From Candidatus Sungiibacteriota bacterium (lineage in GTDB: Bacteria > Patescibacteriota > Minisyncoccia > Sungbacterales > HO2-52-23): a stretch of 64,000 nucleotides of DNA. Made by a program: the position numbers and the translations under genes. The DNA lies in contig JACPBG010000004.1 of assembly GCA_016180435.1 (NCBI GenBank), positions 59,660-123,659 of the forward strand, in the 5' to 3' direction. Shown piece after piece: positions 23 to 13,972 of the stretch. How positions within the stretch are numbered: the stretch's first letter is position 1; every line of letters begins with the position of its first letter. The notes under the pieces are model-generated. The model did not search any database. It worked only from the letters and a program-made list of their open reading frames with translations, and had not been told where the DNA came from.

Positions 23-3000
23 TTGCCTGCGGCCAAAGAACTAAGAACTAAGAACTTAGAACTTAGAAAACCAAAAAGGGAACTAAGTTCTAAATCACTA
101 AGATCTAAGTTCTATGATGCAAAATCATTTTGCATCGTTGTCCCTCCTCCCAACGTTACCGGTTCTCTGCATATGGGACACGCTCTGAATGCCGTTATTC
201 AGGACATCTTGATACGCAAAAAACGAATGGAAGGATTTAGAACTTTATGGCTTCCCGGTACGGATCATGCCGGAATTGCTACGCAAAATGTGGTGGAAAA
301 AGAACTTCGCAAACAAAATATTTCGCGCCACGAATTGGGCAGGGAAAAATTTTTGGCGAGTGTGTGGGAATGGAAAGAAAAATACGGGAATATAATTCTG
401 GACCAATTTAAAAAACTGGGTTCTTCTATGGATTGGTCGCGCGTGCGTTTTACCATGGATGAGGGGTATAAAAAAGCGGTGGAGGAGGCATTTATTCACT
501 ATTATAAAAAAGGATGGATTTACCGCGGAGAGCGCACGGTGAATTGGTGTTCGCGTTGCGCGACTTCCCTTTCGGACCTTGAAATTGAGTATCGGGAAGA
601 GAAAGGCAAATTTTACTATATTAAATACGGCCCCATGGTTTTAGGAACCGCACGGCCGGAAACAAAATTAGGGGATACTGCGCTGGCGGTAAATCCGGTA
701 GACAAACGGTATAAAAAATACATCGGGAAGGAAATTATTATTCGATCGGTGGATTCGTCGGTGGTTCGTGAAGAACAGCCCCGGCTCAAAGATATAAAAA
801 TAAAGGTGGTTGCGGATGAGGCGGCTGATCCGAAATTTGGAACAGGCGTGATTAAAGTAACGCCGGCCCATGATGCGGCTGATTTTGGAATTTATCAGCG
901 GCATCCCGAGATTCTGATTATAAAAGTAATTGGCGAAAACGGACGCATGACTAAAGAGGCGGGTGCGCGTTATGAGGGGCTGAAGGTTTCCGAGGCCCGG
1001 AAACAAATTATTGAAGACCTGGAAAAATTAGGACTCATGGATCATATCGAGGATTACACGCATAACGTCTCGTTATGTTATCGCTGCGGGACAGTGATTG
1101 AGCCGCTTCTTTCCAAACAGTGGTTCTTAAAAATGGATGAATTGGCTAAAATGGCAATTAAAGCCGCCCGCCCCGTTAGAGCCGGCTCTAATGGGGTTAA
1201 ATCCGGAAAAATTAAGTTTCATCCCAAGCGTTGGGAGAAGATTTATTTTGATTGGCTCGGCAATATCAAAGATTGGTGCATATCAAGACAGATTTGGTGG
1301 GGACACCGTCTGCCTGTCTGGTATTGTATGGGCTCGCATATCCAAACCGAAAAAAAAATGGGATTTGCCGGAGATATTGTCCCACAGGTTTTTATCAACA
1401 AAACACGGACTTACCGGTTACGCGATCACGGATTTAAAATTGGTGACCGTGTTGCATTTGAAAACAGCGCTACCGGAGAGATCTTTGGATACGCCGTAAT
1501 TACTGAAATTAAAAAAACAACCGCGGGTGAAATCGATTTAAAAGACCCGAAACATTACAAAATATATAACACCTGCGAGGAACTTATTACAGCATTCAAG
1601 CACCATCCGCAAAAAATAAATAAAGGAACAATCAGTGAAAATACTCTCGTGTGGATTTATACATATCGGTTTGAACCGGCTGATAAATCTGGATCATGCA
1701 TTCGGTTAAATCCCGTTGTAAAGGGCAACTGGTTTTTTGTGAGGCATGGAGAAACGGATTTTAATAAAGAACGTCGTATTCAGGGACAAACCGCTGGAGG
1801 CCCTCTTAATGAATTAGGAAAAAAACAAGCATATGAAACCGCTCAGCGGTTGAAGCCATATAAAATTGATTTAATTATTAGTTCGGATTTGGCGCGAGCT
1901 AAAGATACCGCCGAAATAATTGCCAAAGAGCTTAACGCCGAGATCATTTTTGATGCGGCATTGCGCGAAAGAAATTATGGCATTGCGGAAGGTACGACCC
2001 CTGAAGAGCGAAAACAGCACTACCCCGAATTAGAAGACCGTCTCAAGGAATATACCTTTGTGCCAGACGGCGGAGAAAATTTACCAACCATGGAGAAACG
2101 GATATACCGGGCGCTGGCGCAGCATAAAAAAAATCACCTCCATAAAAATATAGTCATCATATCACACGGCGCCACACTTAAAGGACTTTTTCGTAAGTTA
2201 AAAAATATACCGTTCAACGAGTTTTCCGAATTTACGATCCATAACGCCGGCGTTATTCATGTCTCCATTTCCGATCCATGTGAGAAATGCGGGAGCGATT
2301 TGGCGGAGCAAGACACTAATGTTCTGGATACATGGTTTTCATCCGCGCTTTGGCCTCTGGCAACACTTGGTTGGCCGGATAAAACGGGAGATCTTAAAAA
2401 TTTCTATCCCACCTCGGTATTATCCACGGCGCGTGATATAATCAATTTATGGGTGGCGCGCATGGTATTTTCCGGGCTGGAATTTATGGGAAAGCCGCCG
2501 TTTAAGGATATAATCATCCACGCCACCATTCTCACTAAAGATGGCAAACGGATGTCAAAATCCCTCGGAACCGGCATTGACCCCATGATTTTGATTGAAA
2601 AATACGGGGCAGATGCCGCGCGTTTCGGACTTATTTGGCAGGCCATGGGCAATCAGGATATACACTGGTCGGAGGAGCATGTGGTGGCCGGAAAAAAGTT
2701 TGCCAATAAGATTTGGAACGCCAGCAGATTCGTCCTGCTCCAAATTCCAAATTCTAAATTCCAAACTCCAAACAAATCACAAATTCCAAATTCTAAATTC
2801 CAAACATCGGCGGATAAAAAGATACTGAAACAACTGGAAAAAACAAAAAAAGATGTTTCCAAAAGCATTGATAAATATGAATTTGGACAAGCGCTACATG
2901 CGCTTTACGAATTTTATTGGCACGAGTTTTGCGATGTCTACATAGAAACAGCTAAATCACAAATCACAAATCACAAATCACAAGCAGCAACAGAAAATAT

Positions 3001-3130
3001 TTTACTTTATGTTCTCATTGAATCATTGAAACTCCTACATCCTTTTATGCCTTTTGTTACCGAAGAAATATGGAGCCATCTGCCGCTGAAAGACAAGAAG
3101 CTGTTACTCGTTGAAAACTGGCCCACATAA
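23..3130 (+). CDS. valS: valyl-tRNA synthetase carrying a ~330-aa internal insertion (ASCH/PUA-like + histidine-phosphatase domains); 5' end possibly truncated by window edge (TTG start at 23, frame open to position 2)
   Basis: PPPNVTGSLHMGHA (HIGH), KMSKSLGTGIDP, editing-domain motifs TARPETKLGDTALAVNP and GTGVIKVTPAHD, DWCISRQIWWGHRLP, DTWFSSALWPLATLGWP. Confidence 0.9.
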   Translation: MPAAKELRTKNLELRKPKRELSSKSLRSKFYDAKSFCIVVPPPNVTGSLHMGHALNAVIQDILIRKKRMEGFRTLWLPGTDHAGIATQNVVEKELRKQNISRHELGREKFLASVWEWKEKYGNIILDQFKKLGSSMDWSRVRFTMDEGYKKAVEEAFIHYYKKGWIYRGERTVNWCSRCATSLSDLEIEYREEKGKFYYIKYGPMVLGTARPETKLGDTALAVNPVDKRYKKYIGKEIIIRSVDSSVVREEQPRLKDIKIKVVADEAADPKFGTGVIKVTPAHDAADFGIYQRHPEILIIKVIGENGRMTKEAGARYEGLKVSEARKQIIEDLEKLGLMDHIEDYTHNVSLCYRCGTVIEPLLSKQWFLKMDELAKMAIKAARPVRAGSNGVKSGKIKFHPKRWEKIYFDWLGNIKDWCISRQIWWGHRLPVWYCMGSHIQTEKKMGFAGDIVPQVFINKTRTYRLRDHGFKIGDRVAFENSATGEIFGYAVITEIKKTTAGEIDLKDPKHYKIYNTCEELITAFKHHPQKINKGTISENTLVWIYTYRFEPADKSGSCIRLNPVVKGNWFFVRHGETDFNKERRIQGQTAGGPLNELGKKQAYETAQRLKPYKIDLIISSDLARAKDTAEIIAKELNAEIIFDAALRERNYGIAEGTTPEERKQHYPELEDRLKEYTFVPDGGENLPTMEKRIYRALAQHKKNHLHKNIVIISHGATLKGLFRKLKNIPFNEFSEFTIHNAGVIHVSISDPCEKCGSDLAEQDTNVLDTWFSSALWPLATLGWPDKTGDLKNFYPTSVLSTARDIINLWVARMVFSGLEFMGKPPFKDIIIHATILTKDGKRMSKSLGTGIDPMILIEKYGADAARFGLIWQAMGNQDIHWSEEHVVAGKKFANKIWNASRFVLLQIPNSKFQTPNKSQIPNSKFQTSADKKILKQLEKTKKDVSKSIDKYEFGQALHALYEFYWHEFCDVYIETAKSQITNHKSQAATENILLYVLIESLKLLHPFMPFVTEEIWSHLPLKDKKLLLVENWPT

Positions 3131-4205: not shown

Positions 4206-4787
4206 ATGAATACTTTTTTCGAAAAACTTACCAATTCCAAGCCGCAACCCGTTGCGGCCGATATTGGCGCGGAAGAACGCGATGATGAGGCCGCGGTTGT
4301 TGAAAAAGAAGTTACGCCTTCGCAGCCGTCTCCCAAACGCGCGCCCATGCGTAAAATCGCAGCCCCGGTCCAGCTAAAACCCAAACCAACTCAATTAAAA
4401 GTAGAAAGCGAGGAAGCGGAATCAACGGCAGGGGAGAAAGAAAAAGAACTTGAAGAAGAAGGAGAGTTGACTGTAGATATATATGACAATGGTAATGCTA
4501 TTGTAATTCAATCAACCGTAGCCGGAGTAAAGCCGGAGAATTTGGATGTTTCCATAACAACAGATACCGTGACTATTCGCGGGCGAAGGGAAAAATCCGA
4601 AGAGATTAAAGAAGAACATTATTACTACAAGGAACTTTTTTGGGGTTCTTTTTCCCGCTCGGTCATTTTGCCCGAAGAAATTGATGATACTGCCGCAGAG
4701 GCCGCTTTGAAACACGGCCTTCTCACTATCACGCTTCCGAAGAAAAGAAAAGGAGTGGCGCAGAAACTTAAGGTAAAGGTAACCTAA
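4206..4787 (+). CDS. Hsp20/alpha-crystallin family small heat-shock protein with low-complexity N-terminal extension
   Basis: C-terminal alpha-crystallin-like domain LTVDIYDNGNAIVIQSTVAGVKPENLDVSI...GLLTITLPKK. Confidence 0.8.
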   Translation: MNTFFEKLTNSKPQPVAADIGAEERDDEAAVVEKEVTPSQPSPKRAPMRKIAAPVQLKPKPTQLKVESEEAESTAGEKEKELEEEGELTVDIYDNGNAIVIQSTVAGVKPENLDVSITTDTVTIRGRREKSEEIKEEHYYYKELFWGSFSRSVILPEEIDDTAAEAALKHGLLTITLPKKRKGVAQKLKVKVT

Positions 4788-4958
4788 AAATCGCCATCCG
4801 GCGATTTTTTAGTAAATAAGGGTTGGTGTTTATATGATACTGTTCGGACTCATTTTGAGCAAAATCCCGACTGATTTACCCCTTGCTCGCACTCGGACGG
4901 CTCGGCATTCCTCCCCCCAACCCCCTCCTGCCGAGCCGTCCTCACGGTTGTGGCAGTG
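4782..4958. repeat. left terminal inverted repeat (~177 bp) of a TIR-bounded cassette; contains two strong hairpins (terminator-like, and GGACGGCTCGGCA...TGCCGAGCCGTCC)
   Basis: reverse-complement of 9507-9716 nearly base-for-base (right copy has an extra ~26 bp segment). Confidence 0.85.
4786..4812 (+). terminator. rho-independent terminator hairpin AAATCGCC-atcc-GGCGATTT followed by TTTT; also the outer end of the left terminal inverted repeat
   Basis: stem-loop plus T-run directly after hsp20 stop. Confidence 0.7.
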
Positions 4959-4962
4959 GCAT

Positions 4963-5166
4963 TCACGATTTCAATAAACTAGCTCCAAACTCTGAATGAC
5001 ATTTTACACAAAAACCCTTTAGCGTCATTCCAATTGTGTTAATCTTACCGACACTTTCTTTGTAATAGGTGGTACCCCTTACAATATCGCCACTACATCT
5101 ATCGCAACGTCGAGAAACCCGTGCTTTTGTTTCTTTAAGAAACTTAATGCTATCGTATTTACTCAT
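4963..5166 (-). CDS. small zinc-ribbon protein (CxxC...CxxC), last gene of cassette operon; 4-nt overlap with upstream MTase gene
   Basis: RRCDRCSGD ... CVKCHSEFG cysteine pairs; ATGA overlap at 5163-5166. Confidence 0.45.
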   Translation of the reverse strand: MSKYDSIKFLKETKARVSRRCDRCSGDIVRGTTYYKESVGKINTIGMTLKGFCVKCHSEFGASLLKS

Positions 5167-6014
5167 ACGGATTCAGCAAAAGCGTCCGATAGAATCATTA
5201 CCTCTCTGCCTTTGCGCGATTCATAAGCATTATAGTTGAGAGAAAAACTAACGATTTTTCTTTTTGGATATAATGACCTTATTTCTTTCTTGTTATCGTA
5301 AGTAAGTAACCAGAAAGCATCTCGATTCTCATTAAGTTTTTTTGCAAGTGCTTCGTGATTTTCTTTTTGATAGTGGTTGAGGTAAAGTGTTGCCCCCTTT
5401 TCAAAATAAGGGGGGTCGAGATATATGAAAGAGTTTTTCTTGTCTAAATATTCTTCAATCAATTCAAGGCCATCTTTGTTATATACCGAGATTTTGTCCT
5501 TATATCGGCCAAGTTGTTGGATTTTTTTCACCAAACTTTTCTTATTAAATCTTGCATCAATTTTCCATTTCCCTTTTTGGTTTAATCCACCAATAGGTCC
5601 TCCATCTAAAATCCCGGAAATATTAGTTCTATTTAGAAAAAAGGTTGCAAACCCCAGCTTAAAAAGCCATGATTTTGGATTTTCATAAATTGCCTTTTGT
5701 TTTTTCCATTCGTCAATAGTAATTGGGGTTCTGTAAATCTTCCCTACAAACTTTTCTGAATCAAAAATCGCTGACTGCCAAAACGAGTAAATCGCCCTAT
5801 CAAGATCATTAATCACAATTTTTTTGACCCTGCCAGAAAATAAGAGCGCAAGCGCTGCTCCCGCTCCGCCAGCAAACGGTTCAACGTAAGTGAGATTTTT
5901 CAGACCTTGCTCTTTAATAACTTTTTCAAAAAAGGGCACAAGAGAAGTCTTACCTCCAGGATATCGAAGGGGGCTGTGGTAATTTTTCTGATTTTTGTTC
6001 GTTAGTATTTTCAT
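5163..6014 (-). CDS. Dam-family (D12 class) N6-adenine DNA methyltransferase
   Basis: YPGGK near N-terminus, EPFAGGAG (SAM-binding motif I), IYLDPPYFEKG (DPPY motif IV). Confidence 0.85.
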   Translation of the reverse strand: MKILTNKNQKNYHSPLRYPGGKTSLVPFFEKVIKEQGLKNLTYVEPFAGGAGAALALLFSGRVKKIVINDLDRAIYSFWQSAIFDSEKFVGKIYRTPITIDEWKKQKAIYENPKSWLFKLGFATFFLNRTNISGILDGGPIGGLNQKGKWKIDARFNKKSLVKKIQQLGRYKDKISVYNKDGLELIEEYLDKKNSFIYLDPPYFEKGATLYLNHYQKENHEALAKKLNENRDAFWLLTYDNKKEIRSLYPKRKIVSFSLNYNAYESRKGREVMILSDAFAESV

Positions 6015-6035
6015 TCAATTACATTATACGGCAAT

Positions 6036-6962
6036 TTAAAGCGCCTTCCCATACCTTTGGAGGCGTTTGTAAATAGTCGGTAGTTTGGTTTTAAACCATT
6101 CGCCGTTCCATTCTTGCGCCCAAAAAGCGATGCGACTTCTATCGAAGAGTATGCCGACATCTGGGTAATAAAAATCTTGCCAGTCTGATTCATCAACCTC
6201 GTGAGGAACAAAAAAAGAAAAGATTATCCCCGGCATATCCCAAAAAGAGTAATACTGTTGAAGTTCTTTAATTTCCCGCTTCTTGCTTTTGAAATTGTTT
6301 CCAGCGGCGCATTGGCCAAGTAAAAAGAGCTTACTTTTCCTTCCATCTGGAAAAGGGCGCCAAGCCACAATATCAAGACCGGCATCTTTTTTTTGCGAGG
6401 CATTAGAATTATTTTTAATATCGCCTTCATTAACTTTTATCTTCAAGAACTCCAACGCTCTTCTGAAGGGTTTTTTATCCTGCGTCCATGAATTTCTAGG
6501 TGCGCCAAATTGCAAAGATTGAGCGTTCACCTCTTTACTCGAAAGAAAATTTTCCGCAACCAAGGAAGAAAGTTTCTCAAATAGATCAGAGGTTTTTTGT
6601 TTGTCCCAAACTTTTAGCTCTTTTGCGCCTTTTTCCAGTCCGACATATGACACAAGGAGACAAAATAAATATGCCCAATGATTCTTGTTTGGTTTTTTGT
6701 TTTTCACCTCAACGAGTTTCCCATTGAAACGGAAGGGGTAAACTTTATCCAATTTCCTCAATCGGCTCAATAGTTCGCTTGAGACATCTGTTTTAAGATT
6801 TTCAATTGTTGTTTCTCTGTCTGCATATTCTATCTTTAGCTTTGATGCTAAGTCCTCAATGCTGGACGAGTTATCCTTGTCTAACAACGCGTTTACCTCG
6901 AGCCAGTCGGCAAGCTTAATTTTATTAAGTCGTTCTTTTGGTAGATCAATAACAACAGCCAT
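6036..6962 (-). CDS. hypothetical protein, candidate restriction endonuclease partner of the Dam-like methyltransferase
   Basis: position immediately upstream of the MTase in same operon; no motif I can name with certainty (weak PD-(D/E)xK-like stretch GLDIVAWRPF...LLGQCAAG). Confidence 0.3.
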   Translation of the reverse strand: MAVVIDLPKERLNKIKLADWLEVNALLDKDNSSSIEDLASKLKIEYADRETTIENLKTDVSSELLSRLRKLDKVYPFRFNGKLVEVKNKKPNKNHWAYLFCLLVSYVGLEKGAKELKVWDKQKTSDLFEKLSSLVAENFLSSKEVNAQSLQFGAPRNSWTQDKKPFRRALEFLKIKVNEGDIKNNSNASQKKDAGLDIVAWRPFPDGRKSKLFLLGQCAAGNNFKSKKREIKELQQYYSFWDMPGIIFSFFVPHEVDESDWQDFYYPDVGILFDRSRIAFWAQEWNGEWFKTKLPTIYKRLQRYGKAL

Positions 6963-6968
6963 AGCATA

Positions 6969-8108
6969 TTAATTTTTACCGTTACGCTTTGTTCTCATCT
7001 GTTCTAAAATAGTGTTGGCCAATTCAGCAATTTCCTTCATTTGTTTATAAACCTCCTCGTTTCCTTTATATCGATTTAGATAACCGGCCGTTTTTCTAAG
7101 ATTGTTGAGGGCTTTAAAAACGAAATCTTCCAATTTATAATCCTCTGTATCCGTGTAGGATAAAGCATTTTCGAGTGAAGAAAATTCCTGCGAGTTTTCT
7201 CTTAAGTAGTTTGTAGCCAACTTATGTCCCAGAACATTATCGAGGTATTTCAAATCAGGATTTTGGGATTTAATAACAGATTTTTTAGCGCCATCCTTAC
7301 TCCCAAAGAGAAATTCAAGCAATAACCTAAGATTATTAAAATACTTTCTGGGAACTGGATTTTCAGAAAATATCTCCTTTTGTTTGTTTCTTATACCGAG
7401 ATACTTTCTAGTATTGTCATAACCTAGAATTGTGTAGAGGTGGGAAAAGTAAAATCTTCTCAACTCAACTTCTTCTGCTTTGAAATATCCCTCCTTTTCT
7501 GCCTGCTCTAAAACCCGGAGACCGTTGCACATTTTGATAACGGTCAGGTGTCTGTCTCCGATTCTCTCGGCAATCTTCTCAATCGGTATTTTATATTCTT
7601 TGTGAACCCGAAGTGCATATACGGCCTTACTGTAGGAATCCCATTCTTGTGGGCCATTTATATGCCTAAAGCCCAGATAGGTCCAAAGCGTTTGACGATC
7701 CGGGTATATTGCTACCGGTATCTGTTTAGTAAGTTGTGTCTTTAACTTCTCACTAATCTTTTTTTCTGATTTTAAAAGCGTTTTTATTGCAGCTAATCTT
7801 CTATTACCTTCAATTACAACAAATTTGCCCTTGTGTTTTTTGGATTCAACAGTGAGTAAGGGCTCGGTGTTATAAAAGCCATTTTTTTCAAAGGAATCAA
7901 TCAGCTCGTCCAGATGCATTTCTTTTTGTAGCTTACTAAGAATCTCGTTGTCAGATGCATTTTTTGACAAGCCAGCAAATCGTGGATTCTCGCTATCAAG
8001 TAGCAATCTATCCAACTTAACATAGTTGATTTGGATGGGATCTTGCAGAGTTTTGGTTTTTTGTTCGTTCATATTTTTATTCTTCAGAATATTCCGAATA
8101 CTCATCAA
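6969..8108 (-). CDS. ParB/Srx-like nuclease-domain protein with long C-terminal extension
   Basis: LLLDSENPRF and VIEGNRRLAAIKTLL resemble ParB N-terminal domain boxes (NPR... / (V/I)xEG(E/N)RRxRAA). Confidence 0.5.
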   Translation of the reverse strand: MMSIRNILKNKNMNEQKTKTLQDPIQINYVKLDRLLLDSENPRFAGLSKNASDNEILSKLQKEMHLDELIDSFEKNGFYNTEPLLTVESKKHKGKFVVIEGNRRLAAIKTLLKSEKKISEKLKTQLTKQIPVAIYPDRQTLWTYLGFRHINGPQEWDSYSKAVYALRVHKEYKIPIEKIAERIGDRHLTVIKMCNGLRVLEQAEKEGYFKAEEVELRRFYFSHLYTILGYDNTRKYLGIRNKQKEIFSENPVPRKYFNNLRLLLEFLFGSKDGAKKSVIKSQNPDLKYLDNVLGHKLATNYLRENSQEFSSLENALSYTDTEDYKLEDFVFKALNNLRKTAGYLNRYKGNEEVYKQMKEIAELANTILEQMRTKRNGKN

Positions 8109-9195
8109 GAATTGTATCCGTCATATGTTCCAACCTTTTCTCTTTTGCTAATTCATAAATGGAGTCATAGGGAATATATGAACAGAGCTCCGACAAAGGC
8201 CCTTTCTCCATGACCGCAAAGATTGGGCGAGAAATTTGTTTAAAAACTTCATTTCGTCTGTTGTTGGGCGCAACAATATGAATTTTAATTTCTATATTTG
8301 GCAAAAGAGAAAGTAGATCGGCCATTCTTAAAATACCGGAGTAAATCGACGTCGTTCCCTCAACTTCAAACGCTCGAATTATTGTACGCCCTTGAATCCA
8401 AAGAACGTCGATATTTTTAATCGTTCTTAATGTGATGTCATCAAAAGAAAATGGAAGCTCCTCCAATAAGACATTTTCTTTCGGCTTCCATACTTCTAAT
8501 ACTCCCACGCGATCATTTCTTGGTAACCACACCTTAAAACCTAATTTCTCTCCAATTTCCGAGAGTTTGGCCTGAACCCTGATCGATTCCCGCTCCTCGC
8601 CTACTGGTACTACTTCTTGTGCTTCTTTAGTGGGTTCTTCATCTTCCGGAACTGACACAGAAACTTCCTTTTTGCCAGCCAGACGCATTTTTGAAGATTT
8701 TAATTTCTTTTCATCATTTTCACTAAATTTATATTCAACGAGTTTTTGAGATTGTTCAATGAGTATTTTTTCCAAAAACTCGCAATCGGTTTTTGGCCAC
8801 AAACGAGGACTCGAAAAAATCACATACGTCCATTTGTTGCTATCTTTGGCGAATTCTTTTGTAAAAGAAAGATTATTCCAAATAAAGTCCTCGTGAACAG
8901 GAATCGCTTTTTCAAAAGGTAACCAAACTATAGGTTTTACATTAAAGCGCAAAATAAATGGATCATCTTCTTTTTGAAACAGAGGTGTCTTATCTATAAA
9001 ATATTTACTGGTAATTTCCAAAACACCAACGAAGCGTTGTATCCTTGTTACATAGCAAATAAACTTGTCGCCCGGGCCAATATTTTGATTTTCTACATAA
9101 GTTTTTCTGGAAATCCGAAAACCGCTTACATCCTGTTTGGATTGTTCAAATGCTCGTGCGGTTTCCGGAGAAAATAGATCAATAAAGTAACTCAT
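8077..9195 (-). CDS. EVE/PUA-like N-terminal domain fused to C-terminal putative PD-(D/E)xK-like nuclease domain (type IV / modification-dependent restriction-like)
   Basis: N-term GPGDKFICYVTRIQRFVGVLEITSKYF...DPFILRFNVKPIVWL fits PUA-like beta-barrel pattern; C-term IDVLWIQGRTIIRAFEVEGTTSIYSGILRMADL nuclease-like core; acidic low-complexity linker. Confidence 0.45.
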   Translation of the reverse strand: MSYFIDLFSPETARAFEQSKQDVSGFRISRKTYVENQNIGPGDKFICYVTRIQRFVGVLEITSKYFIDKTPLFQKEDDPFILRFNVKPIVWLPFEKAIPVHEDFIWNNLSFTKEFAKDSNKWTYVIFSSPRLWPKTDCEFLEKILIEQSQKLVEYKFSENDEKKLKSSKMRLAGKKEVSVSVPEDEEPTKEAQEVVPVGEERESIRVQAKLSEIGEKLGFKVWLPRNDRVGVLEVWKPKENVLLEELPFSFDDITLRTIKNIDVLWIQGRTIIRAFEVEGTTSIYSGILRMADLLSLLPNIEIKIHIVAPNNRRNEVFKQISRPIFAVMEKGPLSELCSYIPYDSIYELAKEKRLEHMTDTILDEYSEYSEE

Positions 9196-9197
9196 AA

Positions 9198-9407
9198 CTA
9201 TTTCATTAAATCATCAAGCGATACGCCGAGCGCGTCCGCAATTTTCTTAACCGTCTCAATGGTTGGATTAGGTGTCGTTCCGGCTTCAATCTTGGCGATA
9301 GTATGAAAAGCAAGGTTTGCCCTTTTTGAGAGGACATCTTGAGAAATACCGAGCTTGTTTCGGTATTTCTTTATATTCTCGCCAATTGTCGCTCCTTGCT
9401 TTGACAT
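9198..9407 (-). CDS. XRE-family helix-turn-helix transcriptional regulator (controller-protein-like), first gene of cassette operon
   Basis: LGISQDVLSKRANLAFHTIAKIEAG ... IADALGVSLDDL classic HTH_3. Confidence 0.85.
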   Translation of the reverse strand: MSKQGATIGENIKKYRNKLGISQDVLSKRANLAFHTIAKIEAGTTPNPTIETVKKIADALGVSLDDLMK

Positions 9408-9506
9408 AGTTCGTATAGTTATACTATACTAGTTAGTAGATACTCGTTGGTTTAACTATCACAAGTTTAGTATATGCAATTTTTAGGATTTAATCAATTG
9501 GTTGGT

Positions 9507-9716
9507 CACTGCCACAACCGTGAGGACGGCTCGGCAGGAGGGGGTTGGGGGGAGGAATGCCGAGCCGTCCGAGTGCGAGCCGACCAGCAGGGCGGCGAGC
9601 CAATCAAGGGGTAAATCAGTCGGGATTTTGCTCAAAATGAGTCCGAACAGTATCATATAAACACCAACCCTTATTTACTAAAAAATCGCCGGATGGCGAT
9701 TTTTTAGTAAATAAGG
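9507..9716. repeat. right terminal inverted repeat (~210 bp), outer end is a perfect extended palindrome ccaacccttatttactaaaaaatcgcc-ggat-ggcgattttttagtaaataagggttgg, abutting tRNA-Ala 3' end
   Basis: reverse complement of 4782-4958. Confidence 0.85.
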
Positions 9717-9718
9717 GT

Positions 9719-9789
9719 TGGACCTACGGGGAGTCGAACCCCGACCTCATCCATGCCATGGATGCGTAATGCCGCTTTACTATAGGCCC
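9719..9789 (-). tRNA. tRNA-Ala (anticodon GGC), G3:U70 present, CCA not encoded
   Basis: cloverleaf folds by hand: acceptor GGGCCTA/TAGGTCC, anticodon loop ATGGCAT, T-loop TTCGACT. Confidence 0.85.
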
Positions 9790-9817
9790 GTTTCGATCTT
9801 AAATTGTGATGATATTA

Positions 9818-10303
9818 TTACGGTATATTTTTATACACATCGATAATTCGTTTAATCGTAGCGGCTAATTCTTTGTCGTCCCGGATATCAGTATCTTGTA
9901 AAGATTCTTCAAGCGCCCGTACCGCCGCTTTTTTATTGGATTGAGATTCCATGAATACCGTAAGATGGATAGCCGCGAGCCGCTGTTTTTTATTTTTTTC
10001 GATCATCGGCGCGTCATCGGATAATTTTTGTTCCATAATTTTTTTCAAAATCGATTGCAGCGCGGCACGTTCCGGAGTTGTTTTTTCGACGGTTTCACGT
10101 TTCGATTTCTCTTCCATCCCCACTTCGCCCCCCTTCGCAAAACCCTCCGATGCGGCAACGGAGAGGAATGCACCGAGCGCAAGGGCGGATGTCTTTTTTC
10201 CGATGCGTTTCAATGCCAACGATTTTTCCTGTTTCAATTTATTGTCCGTACGCACCTCTTTATGCTTCGGTATATTCTCTGATGGTTGCCGTTCAAAATT
10301 CAT
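9818..10303 (-). CDS. hypothetical protein with N-terminal hydrophobic anchor/signal, charged low-complexity body
   Basis: ORF only. Confidence 0.4.
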   Translation of the reverse strand: MNFERQPSENIPKHKEVRTDNKLKQEKSLALKRIGKKTSALALGAFLSVAASEGFAKGGEVGMEEKSKRETVEKTTPERAALQSILKKIMEQKLSDDAPMIEKNKKQRLAAIHLTVFMESQSNKKAAVRALEESLQDTDIRDDKELAATIKRIIDVYKNIP

Positions 10304-10343
10304 ATAAAAAATATTTTACGAATAATAATTTTATACGACCGTA

Positions 10344-10790
10344 TTAAATTCGCGTATAAGATAATACCAATAATCCGACTAAAACAATTGTAAACACTAT
10401 TTCAGATTTTGAAAATATCGGTAAAAATCCTCTAATCTTATGCTTGAACGGATAAAAATACTGTTTTTCGTCTTGATCGGGCCAGTCCAGAATTAAATGC
10501 ACAAGATAAGCAATAAAGAAATAAAAAGCACCAGTTATATTTATAAATAATATTGGAATAGTCATAACAGCTGCTCCTAAAATAGAATGCGCATATTTTG
10601 TTTTATAGCGTATATTGTGGGCGTCTTCAAATCTCATGCTGTCTATGATTTTATTCCAAGAAAAAATTTTATGCCGGTATAAGACAAATAAATGGTCAAG
10701 GTCGGGAATAATTGAACCCGCCAGCCAAAACCAAGAAAATTGGTAATTATTTACTGGCATCGTACCTATTATTAAGTGCGCAAAAATCAT
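10344..10790 (-). CDS. membrane-bound metal-dependent hydrolase-like protein (YdjM/DUF457-like)
   Basis: LIIGTMPVNNYQFSWFWLAGSIIPDLDHLF pattern (H..G....PDxDH) and 4 TM. Confidence 0.4.
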   Translation of the reverse strand: MIFAHLIIGTMPVNNYQFSWFWLAGSIIPDLDHLFVLYRHKIFSWNKIIDSMRFEDAHNIRYKTKYAHSILGAAVMTIPILFINITGAFYFFIAYLVHLILDWPDQDEKQYFYPFKHKIRGFLPIFSKSEIVFTIVLVGLLVLSYTRI

Positions 10791-10900
10791 ATTATTTTTT
10801 TATCCTCAATTCTAAACTTTGCACGAACCCATTTTGAGCATAACCTTGGGCCATAGTGGGCGCAAGGTGACCTCCGCAGCTCACCCAGCCCCGCCATTGG

Positions 10901-10938
10901 CTCCTTTTCAATTAGAAATCAATTTTTGTGGGTTTTGG
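10901..10938. repeat. 38-bp inverted repeat, left copy (tccttttcaattagaaatcaatttttgtgggttttggg)
   Basis: perfect reverse complement at 12105-12142. Confidence 0.8.
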
Positions 10939-11040
10939 GGCGTTACTGACTTGCCGCTAGGTAGGCCGGAGTTACCCGAGTATGATGTATAAAATGATTT
11001 GCCACAAACAAATTTATTGTTACACCCCTGCGAACTAATT

Positions 11041-12048
11041 TTATCGCATTCTTAACTCGCACGCTTCTCGTGAGCTCATGGACTTGCCGTCAACAATAAA
11101 AGAATGTTTTATAAGCGAATTATCAAAGGTGCTGCACGGATTCGGATCAGAATAAGAAGTTTTATAAGCTAGGATACACTTTTTAAAGTTTGGCGCATAA
11201 ACAAAAAGTTCGTTGCAAATAGTCACGTCTCTTGATTTTATGGCGTAAGCAACTATACAAGCACCTGTCGCATCTTCCGGTAAATCGATTTTTATATTGA
11301 GATCATTTTTGGGCTCTGGTCTAATTTTATACTTTGAAGAGGTCAAGCGCGCTACTTCTGGTTTTTGGCACTCAACAACTGATTTTGCGGCATAAATCCT
11401 GTTGTAGAAAATAGCTTCTGCAAAAGTATAGTTAAAAATATATGCCCCCATCAATATTACTATTAAAAATATGAACCCTATTCTGTAGTAAAAAAATGAT
11501 TTTACTTTACTAATACCGGATATAACTCCTGCTACCCACATCATGCCTGCCAGGTAAGCCGTGTATAAAATATAGGACATTGTATTAACTAAATATAAAG
11601 GGGTTTCTACATCAAGAAAGAATTTTAAGTTTTCGGCACCGACTAGAAATATGTTTAACAAATAATGCCTTAAAAGCGTTATGCCGACTCCATCATAAAT
11701 ATTAGAATCTCTAACCGCTGGTATTAAAAGTAGTACCAAGAATAATATTGCTAAAAAATATTTTTTGGTAAGAAATTTTTTAGTTGTAAAAAATATTACT
11801 AGTGCATAACCTACCACAAGTCCAAGATTTATTAAGGCGTTAAATGGAGCCCAAAGAATACTAGGAAACAAGGCTGTGTAAAATACAAATCCACATCCTC
11901 CAAAGGAGCAACCATAATAAATCAAAGGCGCTGAAAGCGCTATAATAAACGAGAAGAAAAACAATCTTTTCCTAGAATATACAAACTTTTCTGTAATAGT
12001 TCCAGTGGACATTAATTTAAGAATAACTTGTCGGTCTTTTATTATCAA
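11041..12048 (-). CDS. AT-rich polytopic membrane protein with Cys-rich C-terminal extracytoplasmic region; hypothetical
   Basis: ~8 TM helices, C-terminal CxxxC-rich tail; markedly lower GC than neighbours. Confidence 0.55.
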   Translation of the reverse strand: MIIKDRQVILKLMSTGTITEKFVYSRKRLFFFSFIIALSAPLIYYGCSFGGCGFVFYTALFPSILWAPFNALINLGLVVGYALVIFFTTKKFLTKKYFLAILFLVLLLIPAVRDSNIYDGVGITLLRHYLLNIFLVGAENLKFFLDVETPLYLVNTMSYILYTAYLAGMMWVAGVISGISKVKSFFYYRIGFIFLIVILMGAYIFNYTFAEAIFYNRIYAAKSVVECQKPEVARLTSSKYKIRPEPKNDLNIKIDLPEDATGACIVAYAIKSRDVTICNELFVYAPNFKKCILAYKTSYSDPNPCSTFDNSLIKHSFIVDGKSMSSREACELRMR

Positions 12049-12194: not shown

Positions 12195-12298
12195 CGAGTC
12201 CCAGCATGATAATACTTTCCCGATTTTTGGGGGAGGTTGCCTCGCCGCTTCGCGGCTCGGCTCGGCGGCTTTGCGCAAGGCGCAAAGCCAAAAAATCC
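12195..12298. repeat. ~104-bp inverted repeat, left copy (upstream of recombinase start)
   Basis: reverse complement of 13775-13876 with few mismatches. Confidence 0.8.
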
Positions 12299-12361: not shown

Positions 12362-13972
12362 ATGCTCAAACCAAAATATTTTCTCTACGCTCGCAAGAGC
12401 ACCGAGGATGATGACAAACAAGTAATGTCTATTGAAGCACAGCTTTTTGAATTGCGTGAATTTGCCAAAAGAGAAAATATTGAAATTCTTGAAGAATTTA
12501 CCGAGGCGAAAAGCGCAAAGACGCCGGGACGAGAAGTATTTAATTTAATGATGGGAAAAATTGAAAAATTGGAGGGAGTTGGAATCCTCGCGTGGCACCC
12601 AGATCGTCTCGCTAGAAATTCTGTTGATGGTGGTAAAATCGTTTATTTTGTTGATACGCAAAAAATAATTTCTTTGCGCTTTCCGCAATTTTGGTTTGAG
12701 CCAACTCCGCAAGGGAAATTTATGTTGCAAGTGGCGTTCGGACAGAGCAAATATTTTTCTGACAACTTGGTGGAAAATGTAAAGCGCGGTATCCGCCAAA
12801 AACTCCGCCGTGGCGAGTGGTTGACGCTCGCACCCTTTGGCTATGTGAACAATCCGAAAACGAGACAAATTGAACCGCACCCTACCAAATCAAAAATTGT
12901 CGTGCGAGCGTTTGAGGAGTTTGCCAAAGGAACGCATACGCTCAAAAGTATGTCGGAGTTTTTGGCGGAGCTTGGCGTTGAAACAAAGAACCGAACGCCA
13001 CTTGCGAAATGCAGTATTCACCACTTACTTACCAATCGCGCCTATCTCGGTTTTGTCGCGCACCACGGCGAATATCACGAGGGCACATTTCCGCCAATTC
13101 TTTCCCTCGCAACCTTTGAAGCCGTGCAGGAAGTATTGAAAAGGAAAGCGAAACCTCGCAAATCCAAACAGAGGCACAATTTCCCTTTTACCGGACTACT
13201 CACCTGCGGAGAGTGCGGCTCGGCGATCACCGCGCAATTCGCGCACGGCAATGGCGGAACATATCGCTACTATCGGTGCACGCGGAAAAAGGGAAATTGC
13301 GCTCAAAGATATTTGCGAGAGGATTTACTCGTTTCGCAATTAAAAGCACGGCTTCAAAGCGTTGCGCTTTGCGATGAGTGGATAAAGAAAATGTTAGCGA
13401 AAGTAAATGAATGGGAAAAAGAAAAAGTCCACTCATCGCAAACATTCGTCCAAAATCTGGAAACCAAAAGAACGGCCACGCAAGAGAAACTGGATAAACT
13501 TGTCTCGGCGTATATTGACGGCGACATACCCAAAGAAAACTATTTGAAAAAGAAAGAGGAGTTATTGAAGCAAAAAGTTTCTTTTGCGTCCCAAAAATCG
13601 GATTTTGGACGAACGGGAAAGAATTGGATCGAACCCTTGCGGAGTTGGATTTTAGATATACAGAAAGCCGAAAAATTGTCGCAGAGCGACAATTTTGAGG
13701 ACATTAAGGCGTTTGTCCAAAAAGTTGGAACGAACCATCAACTTTTGGACAAATCCGCTTCATTTTCGTTTTCTGCGCCGTGGGATTATGCGGCTTTGCG
13801 TCTCGCGCAAAGCCGCCAAGCCGAGGGGCGAAGCGGCGAGGCAACCTCCCCCAAAAATCGGGAAAGTATTATCATGTCCCCTCGGGAAGAATTGAACTCC
13901 CATTTTCTCCTTAGGACGGAGACGCTCTGTCCGTTGAGCTACGAGGGGGTTTGGATATTCGCTAAAATATAG
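12362..13972 (+). CDS. large serine recombinase (resolvase/invertase catalytic domain + recombinase domain + zinc ribbon); annotated ORF reads through right repeat and tRNA-Arg so true stop may be as given or protein C-terminus is fortuitous read-through
   Basis: YARKSTEDDDKQ (catalytic Ser region), LAWHPDRLARN, VKRGIRQKLRRGEWLTLAPFGY, CGECGS...YRYYRC. Confidence 0.85.
   Translation: MLKPKYFLYARKSTEDDDKQVMSIEAQLFELREFAKRENIEILEEFTEAKSAKTPGREVFNLMMGKIEKLEGVGILAWHPDRLARNSVDGGKIVYFVDTQKIISLRFPQFWFEPTPQGKFMLQVAFGQSKYFSDNLVENVKRGIRQKLRRGEWLTLAPFGYVNNPKTRQIEPHPTKSKIVVRAFEEFAKGTHTLKSMSEFLAELGVETKNRTPLAKCSIHHLLTNRAYLGFVAHHGEYHEGTFPPILSLATFEAVQEVLKRKAKPRKSKQRHNFPFTGLLTCGECGSAITAQFAHGNGGTYRYYRCTRKKGNCAQRYLREDLLVSQLKARLQSVALCDEWIKKMLAKVNEWEKEKVHSSQTFVQNLETKRTATQEKLDKLVSAYIDGDIPKENYLKKKEELLKQKVSFASQKSDFGRTGKNWIEPLRSWILDIQKAEKLSQSDNFEDIKAFVQKVGTNHQLLDKSASFSFSAPWDYAALRLAQSRQAEGRSGEATSPKNRESIIMSPREELNSHFLLRTETLCPLSYEGVWIFAKI
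13775..13876. repeat. ~104-bp inverted repeat, right copy, lying inside 3' end of recombinase ORF and abutting tRNA-Arg(CCT) 3' end
   Basis: reverse complement of 12195-12298. Confidence 0.8.
13877..13948 (-). tRNA. tRNA-Arg (anticodon CCT); overlapped by 3' end of recombinase ORF
   Basis: cloverleaf by hand: acceptor CCCCTCG/CGAGGGG, D-arm GCTC..GAGC, anticodon loop GTCCTAA, T-loop TTCAATT; backbone very similar to tRNA-Arg(TCT) at 17102. Confidence 0.7.

Follow-up and report, generated by a model that had tools for sequence, protein, structure and literature searches.

The stretch of DNA considered here, a 64,000-nucleotide window (the whole stretch analysed) of contig JACPBG010000004.1 from a Candidatus Sungiibacteriota bacterium, encodes a protein in which an N-terminal EVE domain is fused to a C-terminal nuclease domain of the NmeDI_C type (Table 1). 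This EVE-NmeDI_C protein is a new, uncharacterised member of the type IV enzymes that combine a reader of the PUA superfamily with a nuclease; it falls within the EVE-PD(D/E)XK class and bears an NmeDI-type cleavage module. It is probably a self-contained modification-dependent (type IV) restriction endonuclease. This reading had been proposed from the sequence alone (the original prediction), and the genomic context backs it, as the gene is solitary and neither a methyltransferase nor any other partner is conserved beside it; the modification dependence of the cleavage is what we infer.

Two conserved domains joined by a disordered linker

The nuclease gene is under strong purifying selection, with a ratio of nonsynonymous to synonymous substitution rates (dN/dS) of 0.04–0.05, obtained with synonymous sites that are saturated (dS ≥1.5) even against the nearest nuclease relatives. 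Given this ratio, the open reading frame (ORF) is a genuine selected gene. By part, dN/dS is 0.03–0.06 in both domains and 0.1–0.5 in the linker, where selection is relaxed. Both peptide stretches quoted in the original prediction are present in the translation of the ORF. The AlphaFold model of the protein (mean predicted local distance difference test score, pLDDT, of 76) consists of two folded domains and a disordered stretch at residues 168–200.

The N-terminal domain is confirmed as PUA-like, of the EVE/YTH type, by both sequence and fold, in agreement with the PUA-like barrel (EVE/ASCH/YTH) that had been proposed for the first ~140 residues. A search of the PDB with a profile built from 40 diverse family members (profile A5) retrieved PH1033 (E 5.2e-9) and MJECL36 (E 8.8e-7) over residues 1–143. 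The Foldseek comparison of the AlphaFold model also returned PH1033 (E 1.1e-8, template modelling (TM) score 0.74–0.78) and MJECL36, followed by the EVE protein Rpa0253, the YTH domains of YTHDF1-3 and Mmi1, VcaM4I, and THYN1 bound to DNA containing 5-methylcytosine (5mC). Across these PUA-like pseudobarrel matches the Foldseek probability was 1.00, with E values from 1e-8 to 2e-4. The window protein alone reached 21.5 bits (E 2.5e-4) against the Pfam EVE model (PF01878), a marginal miss below the gathering cut-off of 23; a precomputed PF01878 match is carried by some close homologs, and the window protein matches NCBIfam PRK00809 with an E of 9e-7.

In the family alignment, the residues S9, P10, T12, G25, G42, D43, Y48, R54, D78, R83, L92, P99, W106, T112, W122 and T123 of this domain are invariant. 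Judging from the alignment, Y48, W91, W106, W122, S9-P10 and T12, together with F26 in the closer homologs, could line a pocket for a flipped modified base.

The linker had been described as acidic, and it is: residues 168–200 are acidic, have pLDDT values below 50 and are variable in alignment A1.

The restriction-endonuclease-like core suggested for the C-terminal half was found by structure comparison and by homology to NmeDI_C. Searches of PDB sequences, with the single sequence and with a profile of the C-terminal domain, gave no significant match, and fold comparison was used instead; the model contains the alpha-beta-beta-beta-alpha-beta core of the PD-(D/E)xK superfamily. The first half has a PUA-like fold and the second a restriction-endonuclease fold, and the original prediction thus passed the refutation test set out with it, which asked whether either fold was missing from the predicted structure. 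The PADLOC REase_II profile PDLC03534, whose length of 351 is that of R.NmeDI, matches residues 200–349 (E 5.8e-16). A precomputed match to PF27126 (NmeDI_C) is present in all of the 120 best homologs (65–92% identity), the window protein itself having been scored through PDLC03534.

In the model, D263 lies at the start of beta-2 and E277-V-E279 on beta-3. These three acidic residues are invariant in alignments A1, A2, A7 and A8, which represent all three architectural classes of the NmeDI_C superfamily, and so are Q208, D228, R290, D293 and R323-P324. Their invariance and modelled positions point to D263, E277 and E279 as candidate catalytic residues, and the nuclease is probably active.

Table 1. 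Features of the nuclease gene and its surroundings (window coordinates).
Feature	Position	Strand	Remarks
EVE-NmeDI_C nuclease gene	8077..9195	-	372 aa, ATG start, intact ORF
EVE/PUA-like reader domain, residues 1-165	8701..9195	-	Foldseek, family profile against PDB, Pfam
Acidic disordered inter-domain linker, residues 166-200	8596..8700	-	pLDDT, selection, alignment
NmeDI_C PD-(D/E)xK-type nuclease domain, residues 201-372	8080..8595	-	
Candidate catalytic motif D263 ... E277-V-E279	8359..8409	-	Invariance in alignments, strand positions from model
XRE-type helix-turn-helix (HTH) gene, 69 aa	9198..9407	-	2 nt upstream of nuclease
Promoter-like site upstream of HTH gene, inside cassette	9469..9497	-	TTGATT-17-TATACT, 9/12 matches, consensus match only
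ParB-like protein, PD-Lambda-5_A-like, cargo	6969..8108	-	Likely true start ATG at 8072
308-aa protein, cargo	6036..6962	-	Without family assignment
D12-class (Dam-like) N6-adenine DNA methyltransferase, PD-Lambda-5_B-like, cargo	5163..6014	-	
67-aa Cys-rich (Zn-ribbon-like) protein, last cassette gene	4963..5166	-	Weak Pfam matches only
IR-L, left inverted repeat, 173 nt	4786..4958		Begins at hsp20 stop codon
IR-R, right inverted repeat, 198 nt	9507..9704		Abuts tRNA-Ala
tRNA-Ala(GGC) flanking cassette	9719..9789	-	ARAGORN; Rfam tRNA 58.5 bits
Large serine recombinase	12362..13972	+	Resolvase, Recombinase, Zn_ribbon_recom domains

Comparison with known systems

EVE–nuclease fusions are established or predicted type IV enzymes that are rarely found beside methyltransferases (PMC7897488, PMC6765204, PMC7641849). 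The layout of the window protein is shared with the VcaM4I/TspA15I group of EVE-HNH enzymes (PDB 6yex; PMC7897488, PMC6765204), in which an EVE domain of ~150 residues is connected through a linker of ~30 residues to a C-terminal nuclease. VcaM4I is likewise a single-gene system without a cognate methyltransferase, and its EVE domain is matched in fold (Foldseek E 1.3e-4). However, its nuclease is of the HNH type rather than the NmeDI_C PD-(D/E)xK type, the EVE domains share about 13% identity, and its linker is a structured auto-inhibitory helix, whereas that of the window protein is acidic and predicted to be disordered. VcaM4I reads 5mC and 5-hydroxymethylcytosine (5hmC) and acts on DNA (PMC7897488).

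The C-terminal catalytic domain is homologous to that of R.NmeDI from Neisseria meningitidis, an active type II enzyme that recognizes RCCGGY and cuts 12/7 nt away on both sides (PMC2095814). The position of these cuts indicates that the C-terminal module of R.NmeDI acts at a distance from its recognition module. In contrast to the window protein, R.NmeDI has an unrelated N-terminal half, recognizes an unmodified sequence and needs a cognate C5 methyltransferase, the gene of which overlaps its own. A similar fixed-distance layout is found in MspJI and AspBHI, where a reader of the PUA superfamily is joined to a PD-(D/E)xK nuclease that cuts N12/N16 from 5mC; their reader, however, is SRA-like and not EVE, and neither a sequence nor a fold match to these enzymes turned up in searches of the window protein.

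By profile and by fold (TM 0.70–0.78), the closest relatives of the N-terminal domain are the archaeal UPF0310 proteins PH1033 and MJECL36 (PDB 1wmm, 2hd9, 2p5d), which, unlike the window protein, are stand-alone proteins of ~145 residues without a nuclease. Finally, the core architecture and the predicted role are those of the EVE-PD(D/E)XK class of Bell, Wolf and Koonin 2020 (PMC7641849). That class is defined by bioinformatics only and was described as 'fast-evolving', whereas the EVE-NmeDI_C family is strongly conserved; NmeDI is not named in the census.

A solitary gene with a patchy distribution

Homologs of the nuclease form 4265 clusters (90% identity, E ≤1e-3), and the best 120 are 65–92% identical over the full length. 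A peptide-pattern scan of one genome for each of 185,579 species confirmed at least 333 relatives, which is a lower bound. The best 80 of those 333 are spread over more than 15 phyla at 48–87% identity and include Archaea (Methanosarcinales, Argoarchaeum and Hadesarchaea). The distribution of the gene is patchy.

The wider NmeDI_C superfamily comprises 2074 representatives at 50% clustering. Of the 77 that have at least 120 residues before the NmeDI_C domain, 41 carry this EVE domain and 36 carry other modules, so that NmeDI_C is joined to at least three kinds of N-terminal module and behaves as a shuffled cleavage module. The other modules fall into classes of ~130 and ~230–290 residues, some of them in proteins of plasmid heavy-metal islands, and gave no match in Pfam, PADLOC and PDB profile searches. 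Short NmeDI_C proteins (160–290 residues) were considered as stand-alone nucleases and rejected, most of them being N-terminally truncated gene calls of the same architecture. Plasmid-borne members of about 420–435 residues are solitary as well. Three such plasmid proteins of 421–435 residues, one of them on pMOL30 of Cupriavidus metallidurans (loci L087, 3212-4519; L088, 3269-4534; L089, 3245-4510), have an N-terminal half of ~240 residues without assignment and are labelled 'type II restriction endonuclease' or 'hypothetical protein'. They lie within heavy-metal-resistance regions, with no adjoining DNA methyltransferase, and may be further mislabelled type IV enzymes.

The neighbourhood of the gene was surveyed in about 80 genomes, drawn from more than 15 phyla, through 149 immediate neighbours (75 upstream and 74 downstream). 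The upstream genes represent 116 Pfam families and the downstream genes 81, with no family occurring in more than four loci. Proteins as different as tRNA synthetases, Eco57I-type methylases, integrases and a relaxase are encoded by the neighbours, of which DNA methyltransferases of any kind account for fewer than 10%. No homolog of the ParB-like protein, the 308-aa protein, the methyltransferase or the Zn-ribbon protein of the window was found in the first 86 related loci. Between hosts there is no DNA synteny outside the nuclease gene, and with the nearest relatives the DNA similarity begins in the HTH gene and ends right after the nuclease stop codon.

The next gene begins 4 nt past that stop in each locus of the nearest relatives, but it differs from locus to locus. 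The junction 'TAA-AAAT-ATG' (stop, 4 nt, start) is kept in the window (8070-8079), in L007 (about 4384-4395) and in L008 (about 9117-9128), although the downstream genes are unrelated; the exchange of cargo therefore seems to fall exactly at the gene boundary.

A conserved adjoining cognate methyltransferase, as expected of a type II restriction–modification (R-M) system, was not found: a D12 methyltransferase occurs in the cassette only in the window and in L093, the locus of the closest nuclease homolog. A conserved two-gene unit of HTH and nuclease, as expected of a type II toxin–antitoxin system, was not found either, since an HTH homolog lies upstream of the nuclease only in the closest subclade (L007, L020, L093 and L094-96, with remnants in L002-4). 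A gene that is solitary in about 80 genomes, without a conserved partner, fits a type IV enzyme, which requires no cognate methyltransferase. A lethal type II enzyme could not spread in this manner and a modification-dependent enzyme can, so that the context favours type IV.

The adjoining methyltransferase and the other genes of the run

In the window, the nuclease gene is the second in a run of six ORFs on the same strand, with gaps or overlaps of at most 21 nt. The order is HTH, nuclease, ParB-like protein, 308-aa protein, D12 methyltransferase and 67-aa Cys-rich protein. The original prediction placed the nuclease in an operon with an N6-methyladenine (m6A) methyltransferase. This is true of the window, where the enzyme is of the D12 class and has an intact DPPY motif. 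Two options had then been offered, either that the nuclease senses a different mark or that the system is a self-modifying hybrid. The first, with two independent modules, is favoured, because the methyltransferase pairs with ParB-like proteins and its linkage to the nuclease is restricted to the window and L093; the self-modifying hybrid is unsupported.

The methyltransferase (MethyltransfD12, E 2.5e-22) is a full-length match to PD-Lambda-5_B (E 5e-113). For the ParB-like protein, the match to PD-Lambda-5_A is limited to the N-terminal ~110 residues (E 2.6e-20), and NCBIfam parB_part is matched as well (E 3e-7). The two genes resemble PD-lambda-5 (PMC9519451), but the A-like match is partial, an additional 308-aa gene lies between the two, and PD-lambda-5 itself includes no EVE nuclease. 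A methyltransferase homolog encoded on a Kosakonia plasmid follows a gene whose product can be aligned to the window ParB-like protein (E 3e-11), and the EVE nuclease is absent there. Elsewhere, the relatives of the methyltransferase that were examined have ParB-like, AAA or other partners and never the EVE nuclease.

The cassette of L093 has its modules in the same order as the window: HTH gene, nuclease (92% identical to that of the window), short ParB-like protein, 122-aa protein, D12 methyltransferase and, last, a 137-aa protein bearing a D...EVK motif. The identity with the window is 73% for the methyltransferase and 32% for the ParB-like protein, and these unequal values indicate modules with separate histories. 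The methyltransferase is absent from the other close relatives, namely L007 (87% identity), L094-96 (84%), L002/L008 (86%) and L097 (79%). It is concluded that the linkage between nuclease and methyltransferase is a lineage-specific juxtaposition of two modules, confined to the window and L093.

The cloning of PD-lambda-5 needed an E. coli host with mrr deleted (Vassallo et al. 2022, PMC9519451), which implies that in E. coli the methylation made by PD-lambda-5 is a target of type IV restriction. That PD-lambda-5-like methylation is tolerated beside the nuclease suggests, in turn, that the nuclease reads a different mark.

The 308-aa protein, which has no match in Pfam or NCBIfam and lacks homologs in the related loci, is a possible effector of the PD-lambda-5-like module. 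Its stretch 'LDIVAW ... LLGQCAAG' recalls the D...QxK motif of Mrr-type nucleases, with the lysine absent. Cargo genes 3' of the nuclease in L007 (4355-5137, 'EIDFVA...VVECKY') and L093 (3503-3916, 'DIIFHS...VVEVKRD') carry D...E-x-K motifs and have no Pfam match, and the motifs suggest additional small PD-(D/E)xK nucleases.

The HTH protein at the head of the run matches HTH_3 (E 5e-16), the PADLOC Control_protein models (E 4e-10) and NCBIfam antitoxin families, and it is probably a controller resembling the C proteins. Of 19 repeat-bounded cassettes without the nuclease, 12 start with a homolog of the HTH gene, which makes it a framework gene of this type of cassette rather than a dedicated partner or antitoxin of the nuclease. 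Directly 5' of its start codon (window 9415-9459) lie short inverted repeats, ATAGTTATAC / GTTTAACTAT and GTATAG-TATAA-CTATAC, which from their sequence and position are possible operators for autoregulation.

Proposed mechanism and alternative explanations

In the proposed mechanism, the N-terminal EVE domain would bind DNA and flip a modified base into its conserved pocket. The acidic flexible linker would tether, and possibly restrain, the NmeDI-type PD-(D/E)xK domain. This domain, probably as a dimer, would then cut the DNA some distance from the sensed base, with D263/E277/E279 as its candidate active site. Because such an enzyme would attack modified DNA only, it would need no cognate methyltransferase and could move between genomes as a single gene. 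Its position next to an independent PD-lambda-5-like module argues that the sensed mark is probably not the m6A of the neighbour and more likely either a modified cytosine or a phage base that is hypermodified.

Several observations weigh against a type IV endonuclease. Its closest EVE relatives, PH1033 and MJECL36, have no known ligand, and the next ones are YTH domains, which read m6A mostly in RNA. In the putative active site, the lysine of the canonical PD-(D/E)xK motif is replaced by glutamate, giving a D...ExE variant, of which BamHI is a known example. A D12 methyltransferase is also present in the cassette of the nearest relative, L093, which leaves some room for a functional coupling with the nuclease. 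The nuclease gene is absent from 50,697 phage records, so there is no direct link to phage biology, and no characterised member of the EVE-NmeDI_C family was found in the literature. Lastly, the very high conservation is unusual in comparison with the 'fast-evolving' EVE domains of defence systems (PMC7641849).

This conservation is the starting point for one alternative, in which the protein is a housekeeping nuclease for DNA repair or genome maintenance that recognizes a damaged or aberrantly modified base. An identity of 48–92% across bacteria and archaea, a dN/dS of about 0.04 and the many copies located between housekeeping genes such as tRNA synthetases would all suit such a role, and slowly evolving EVE domains have been tied to non-defence roles (PMC7641849). 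Nevertheless, this explanation seems quite unlikely. The gene is patchily distributed (at least 333 relatives among 185,579 species) and shows no synteny between hosts, it is associated with integrases, insertion sequence (IS) elements, resolvases, R-M genes and a mobile cassette, and the guanine–cytosine (GC) content of the six-gene stretch is 36–39%, compared with about 45–50% in the flanking DNA.

Another alternative makes RNA the substrate: the EVE/YTH-like domain would read a modified base in tRNA, rRNA or phage transcripts, and the nuclease would cleave that RNA as a toxin–antitoxin-like or abortive-infection effector restrained by the HTH protein. EVE, PUA and YTH domains classically bind RNA, and the top annotated folds after PH1033 and MJECL36 are YTH domains that bind m6A in RNA. 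EVE domains also occur in toxin–antitoxin contexts (Bell et al., PMC7641849), which agrees with the antitoxin families matched by the HTH protein. However, NmeDI, to which the catalytic module is homologous, has been proven to be a DNA endonuclease, and the EVE-nuclease VcaM4I acts on DNA. Most family members also lack an HTH gene or other candidate antitoxin, the HTH being part of the cassette framework. An RNA-directed toxin is therefore improbable, and DNA is the expected substrate of a type IV enzyme of this kind.

The least probable alternative is a conventional type II R-M restriction subunit, controlled by the C-protein-like HTH, protected against by the Dam-like methyltransferase and using the EVE-like domain for sequence recognition only. 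In its favour are the REase_II label that PADLOC gives to the C-terminal domain, the Control_protein matches of the HTH and the type II nature of the founding member, NmeDI, which has a cognate methyltransferase. All the genes also form one tight operon, and a D12 methyltransferase (73% identical) lies downstream in L093 too. Against it, among the loci examined the nuclease is accompanied by this methyltransferase only in the window and L093 (0 of the first 86 loci), methyltransferases of any kind make up less than 10% of its neighbours although an unprotected type II enzyme would be lethal, the 92%, 73% and 32% identities of nuclease, methyltransferase and ParB-like protein to those of L093 point to separate histories, the methyltransferase family pairs with ParB-like or AAA partners elsewhere, and the HTH is the generic first gene of the cassettes.

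The inverted-repeat cassette

All six genes lie inside a 4.5-kb cassette (4959-9506) between two inverted repeats. Two blocks of the repeats, of 100 nt and 74 nt, are 100% identical and are separated by a 25-nt indel. The outer end of each repeat carries a terminator hairpin; each repeat also has a 13-bp GC stem capped by a C-rich loop of 21 nt and folds better than shuffled sequence (z -4.3). The same design is found in L007, where perfect 167-nt repeats (2812-2978 and 5609-5775) enclose the HTH gene, the nuclease gene and genes for 260-aa and 174-aa proteins. Between the window and L007, the GC stem shows five compensatory pairs, that is, covariation. Rfam contains no family for the repeat, and only sub-threshold miRNA matches were obtained, on the palindrome described below.

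At least 120 metagenome contigs (L100-L219), and no viral contig, contain the hairpin core, CTCGGRCGNNNCGGMATTCCYCCCC. Among the contigs listed, 19 have inverted pairs of 99–330 nt enclosing 1.5–4.9 kb. These cassettes vary widely in cargo, and none of them carries the EVE nuclease; DNA methyltransferases are encoded most often, besides PIN, T5orf172, LexA-like, ArsR/ArsP and redox proteins. A homolog of the large serine recombinase is present in 32 metagenome contigs among the matches listed, typically 150–500 nt outside one repeat and reading away from it. In all nine of the contigs that have both recombinase and HTH, the order is recombinase, repeat, HTH, cargo, repeat. The window has the same polarity, but 2.6 kb separate IR-R from the recombinase and contain tRNA-Ala and three low-GC ORFs.

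Taken together, the cassette and the adjoining large serine recombinase may form an undescribed type of mobile element, whose traits would be a cassette of 1.5–5 kb, perfect repeats of 100–330 nt, a covarying hairpin, an XRE-type HTH gene at the head and interchangeable cargo for defence or stress. An invertible switch for phase variation was also considered and is unlikely, given that the cassette itself includes both the promoter-like site and the HTH gene and that 9/9 contigs share the same recombinase-to-HTH polarity. Borders formed by 41-nt direct repeats, as from integration at tRNA-Ala, were rejected, as both junctions show the 173/198-nt inverted repeats. There is weak support for an insertion site at hsp20 common to the window and L007, given that their hsp20 proteins share 29% identity and that the other hairpin-bearing contigs have no hsp20 homolog.

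Around the cassette, a perfect palindrome with 27-nt arms (window 9664-9721) comprises the encoded CCA end of tRNA-Ala(GGC), the sequence downstream of it and the outer end of IR-R. The 3' end of the recombinase ORF overlaps tRNA-Arg(CCT) on the opposite strand (13876-13948), and the sequence upstream of the recombinase (12230-12290) resembles the indel part of the repeat. GC content is low from about 5000 to 12000, so the cassette may sit within a larger integrated island extending from hsp20 to tRNA-Arg.

Elsewhere in the window, the ORF for valyl-tRNA synthetase (23-3130, + strand, 1035 aa) contains a His_Phos_1 domain at residues 571-751 (E 5.5e-47). This insert splits the halves of the synthetase catalytic domain and is preceded by another insert of ~130 aa without assignment.

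Implications

A bolder, joint proposal is that the nuclease is the first PD-(D/E)xK type IV enzyme with an EVE domain reading a mark other than 5mC/5hmC, and that its vehicle is an undescribed mobile element; this is tentative and, as a whole, rather doubtful. Such a mark could be, for example, a hypermodified purine, or m6A in a context unlike the one modified by the neighbouring Dam-like enzyme. A single specificity, ancient and invariant, would then account for the extreme conservation seen across bacteria and archaea.

Type IV enzymes are the answer of the host to phages with modified DNA, and they also serve as reagents for epigenetic mapping. The EVE-NmeDI_C family is large, compact (372 aa) and conserved in both prokaryotic domains, and it combines an EVE domain with a module of the distance-cutting kind, which makes it a good candidate for a new modification-specific endonuclease. 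A probable mislabel in databases, 'type II restriction enzyme', is also corrected by the present analysis, which indicates that the neighbouring methyltransferase is not the partner of the nuclease. If the cassette is indeed a mobile element, it would represent a cassette system for accessory genes in groundwater bacteria, probably of the Candidate Phyla Radiation (CPR), and its recurrent architecture may explain the spread of single-gene defences among uncultured groundwater bacteria.

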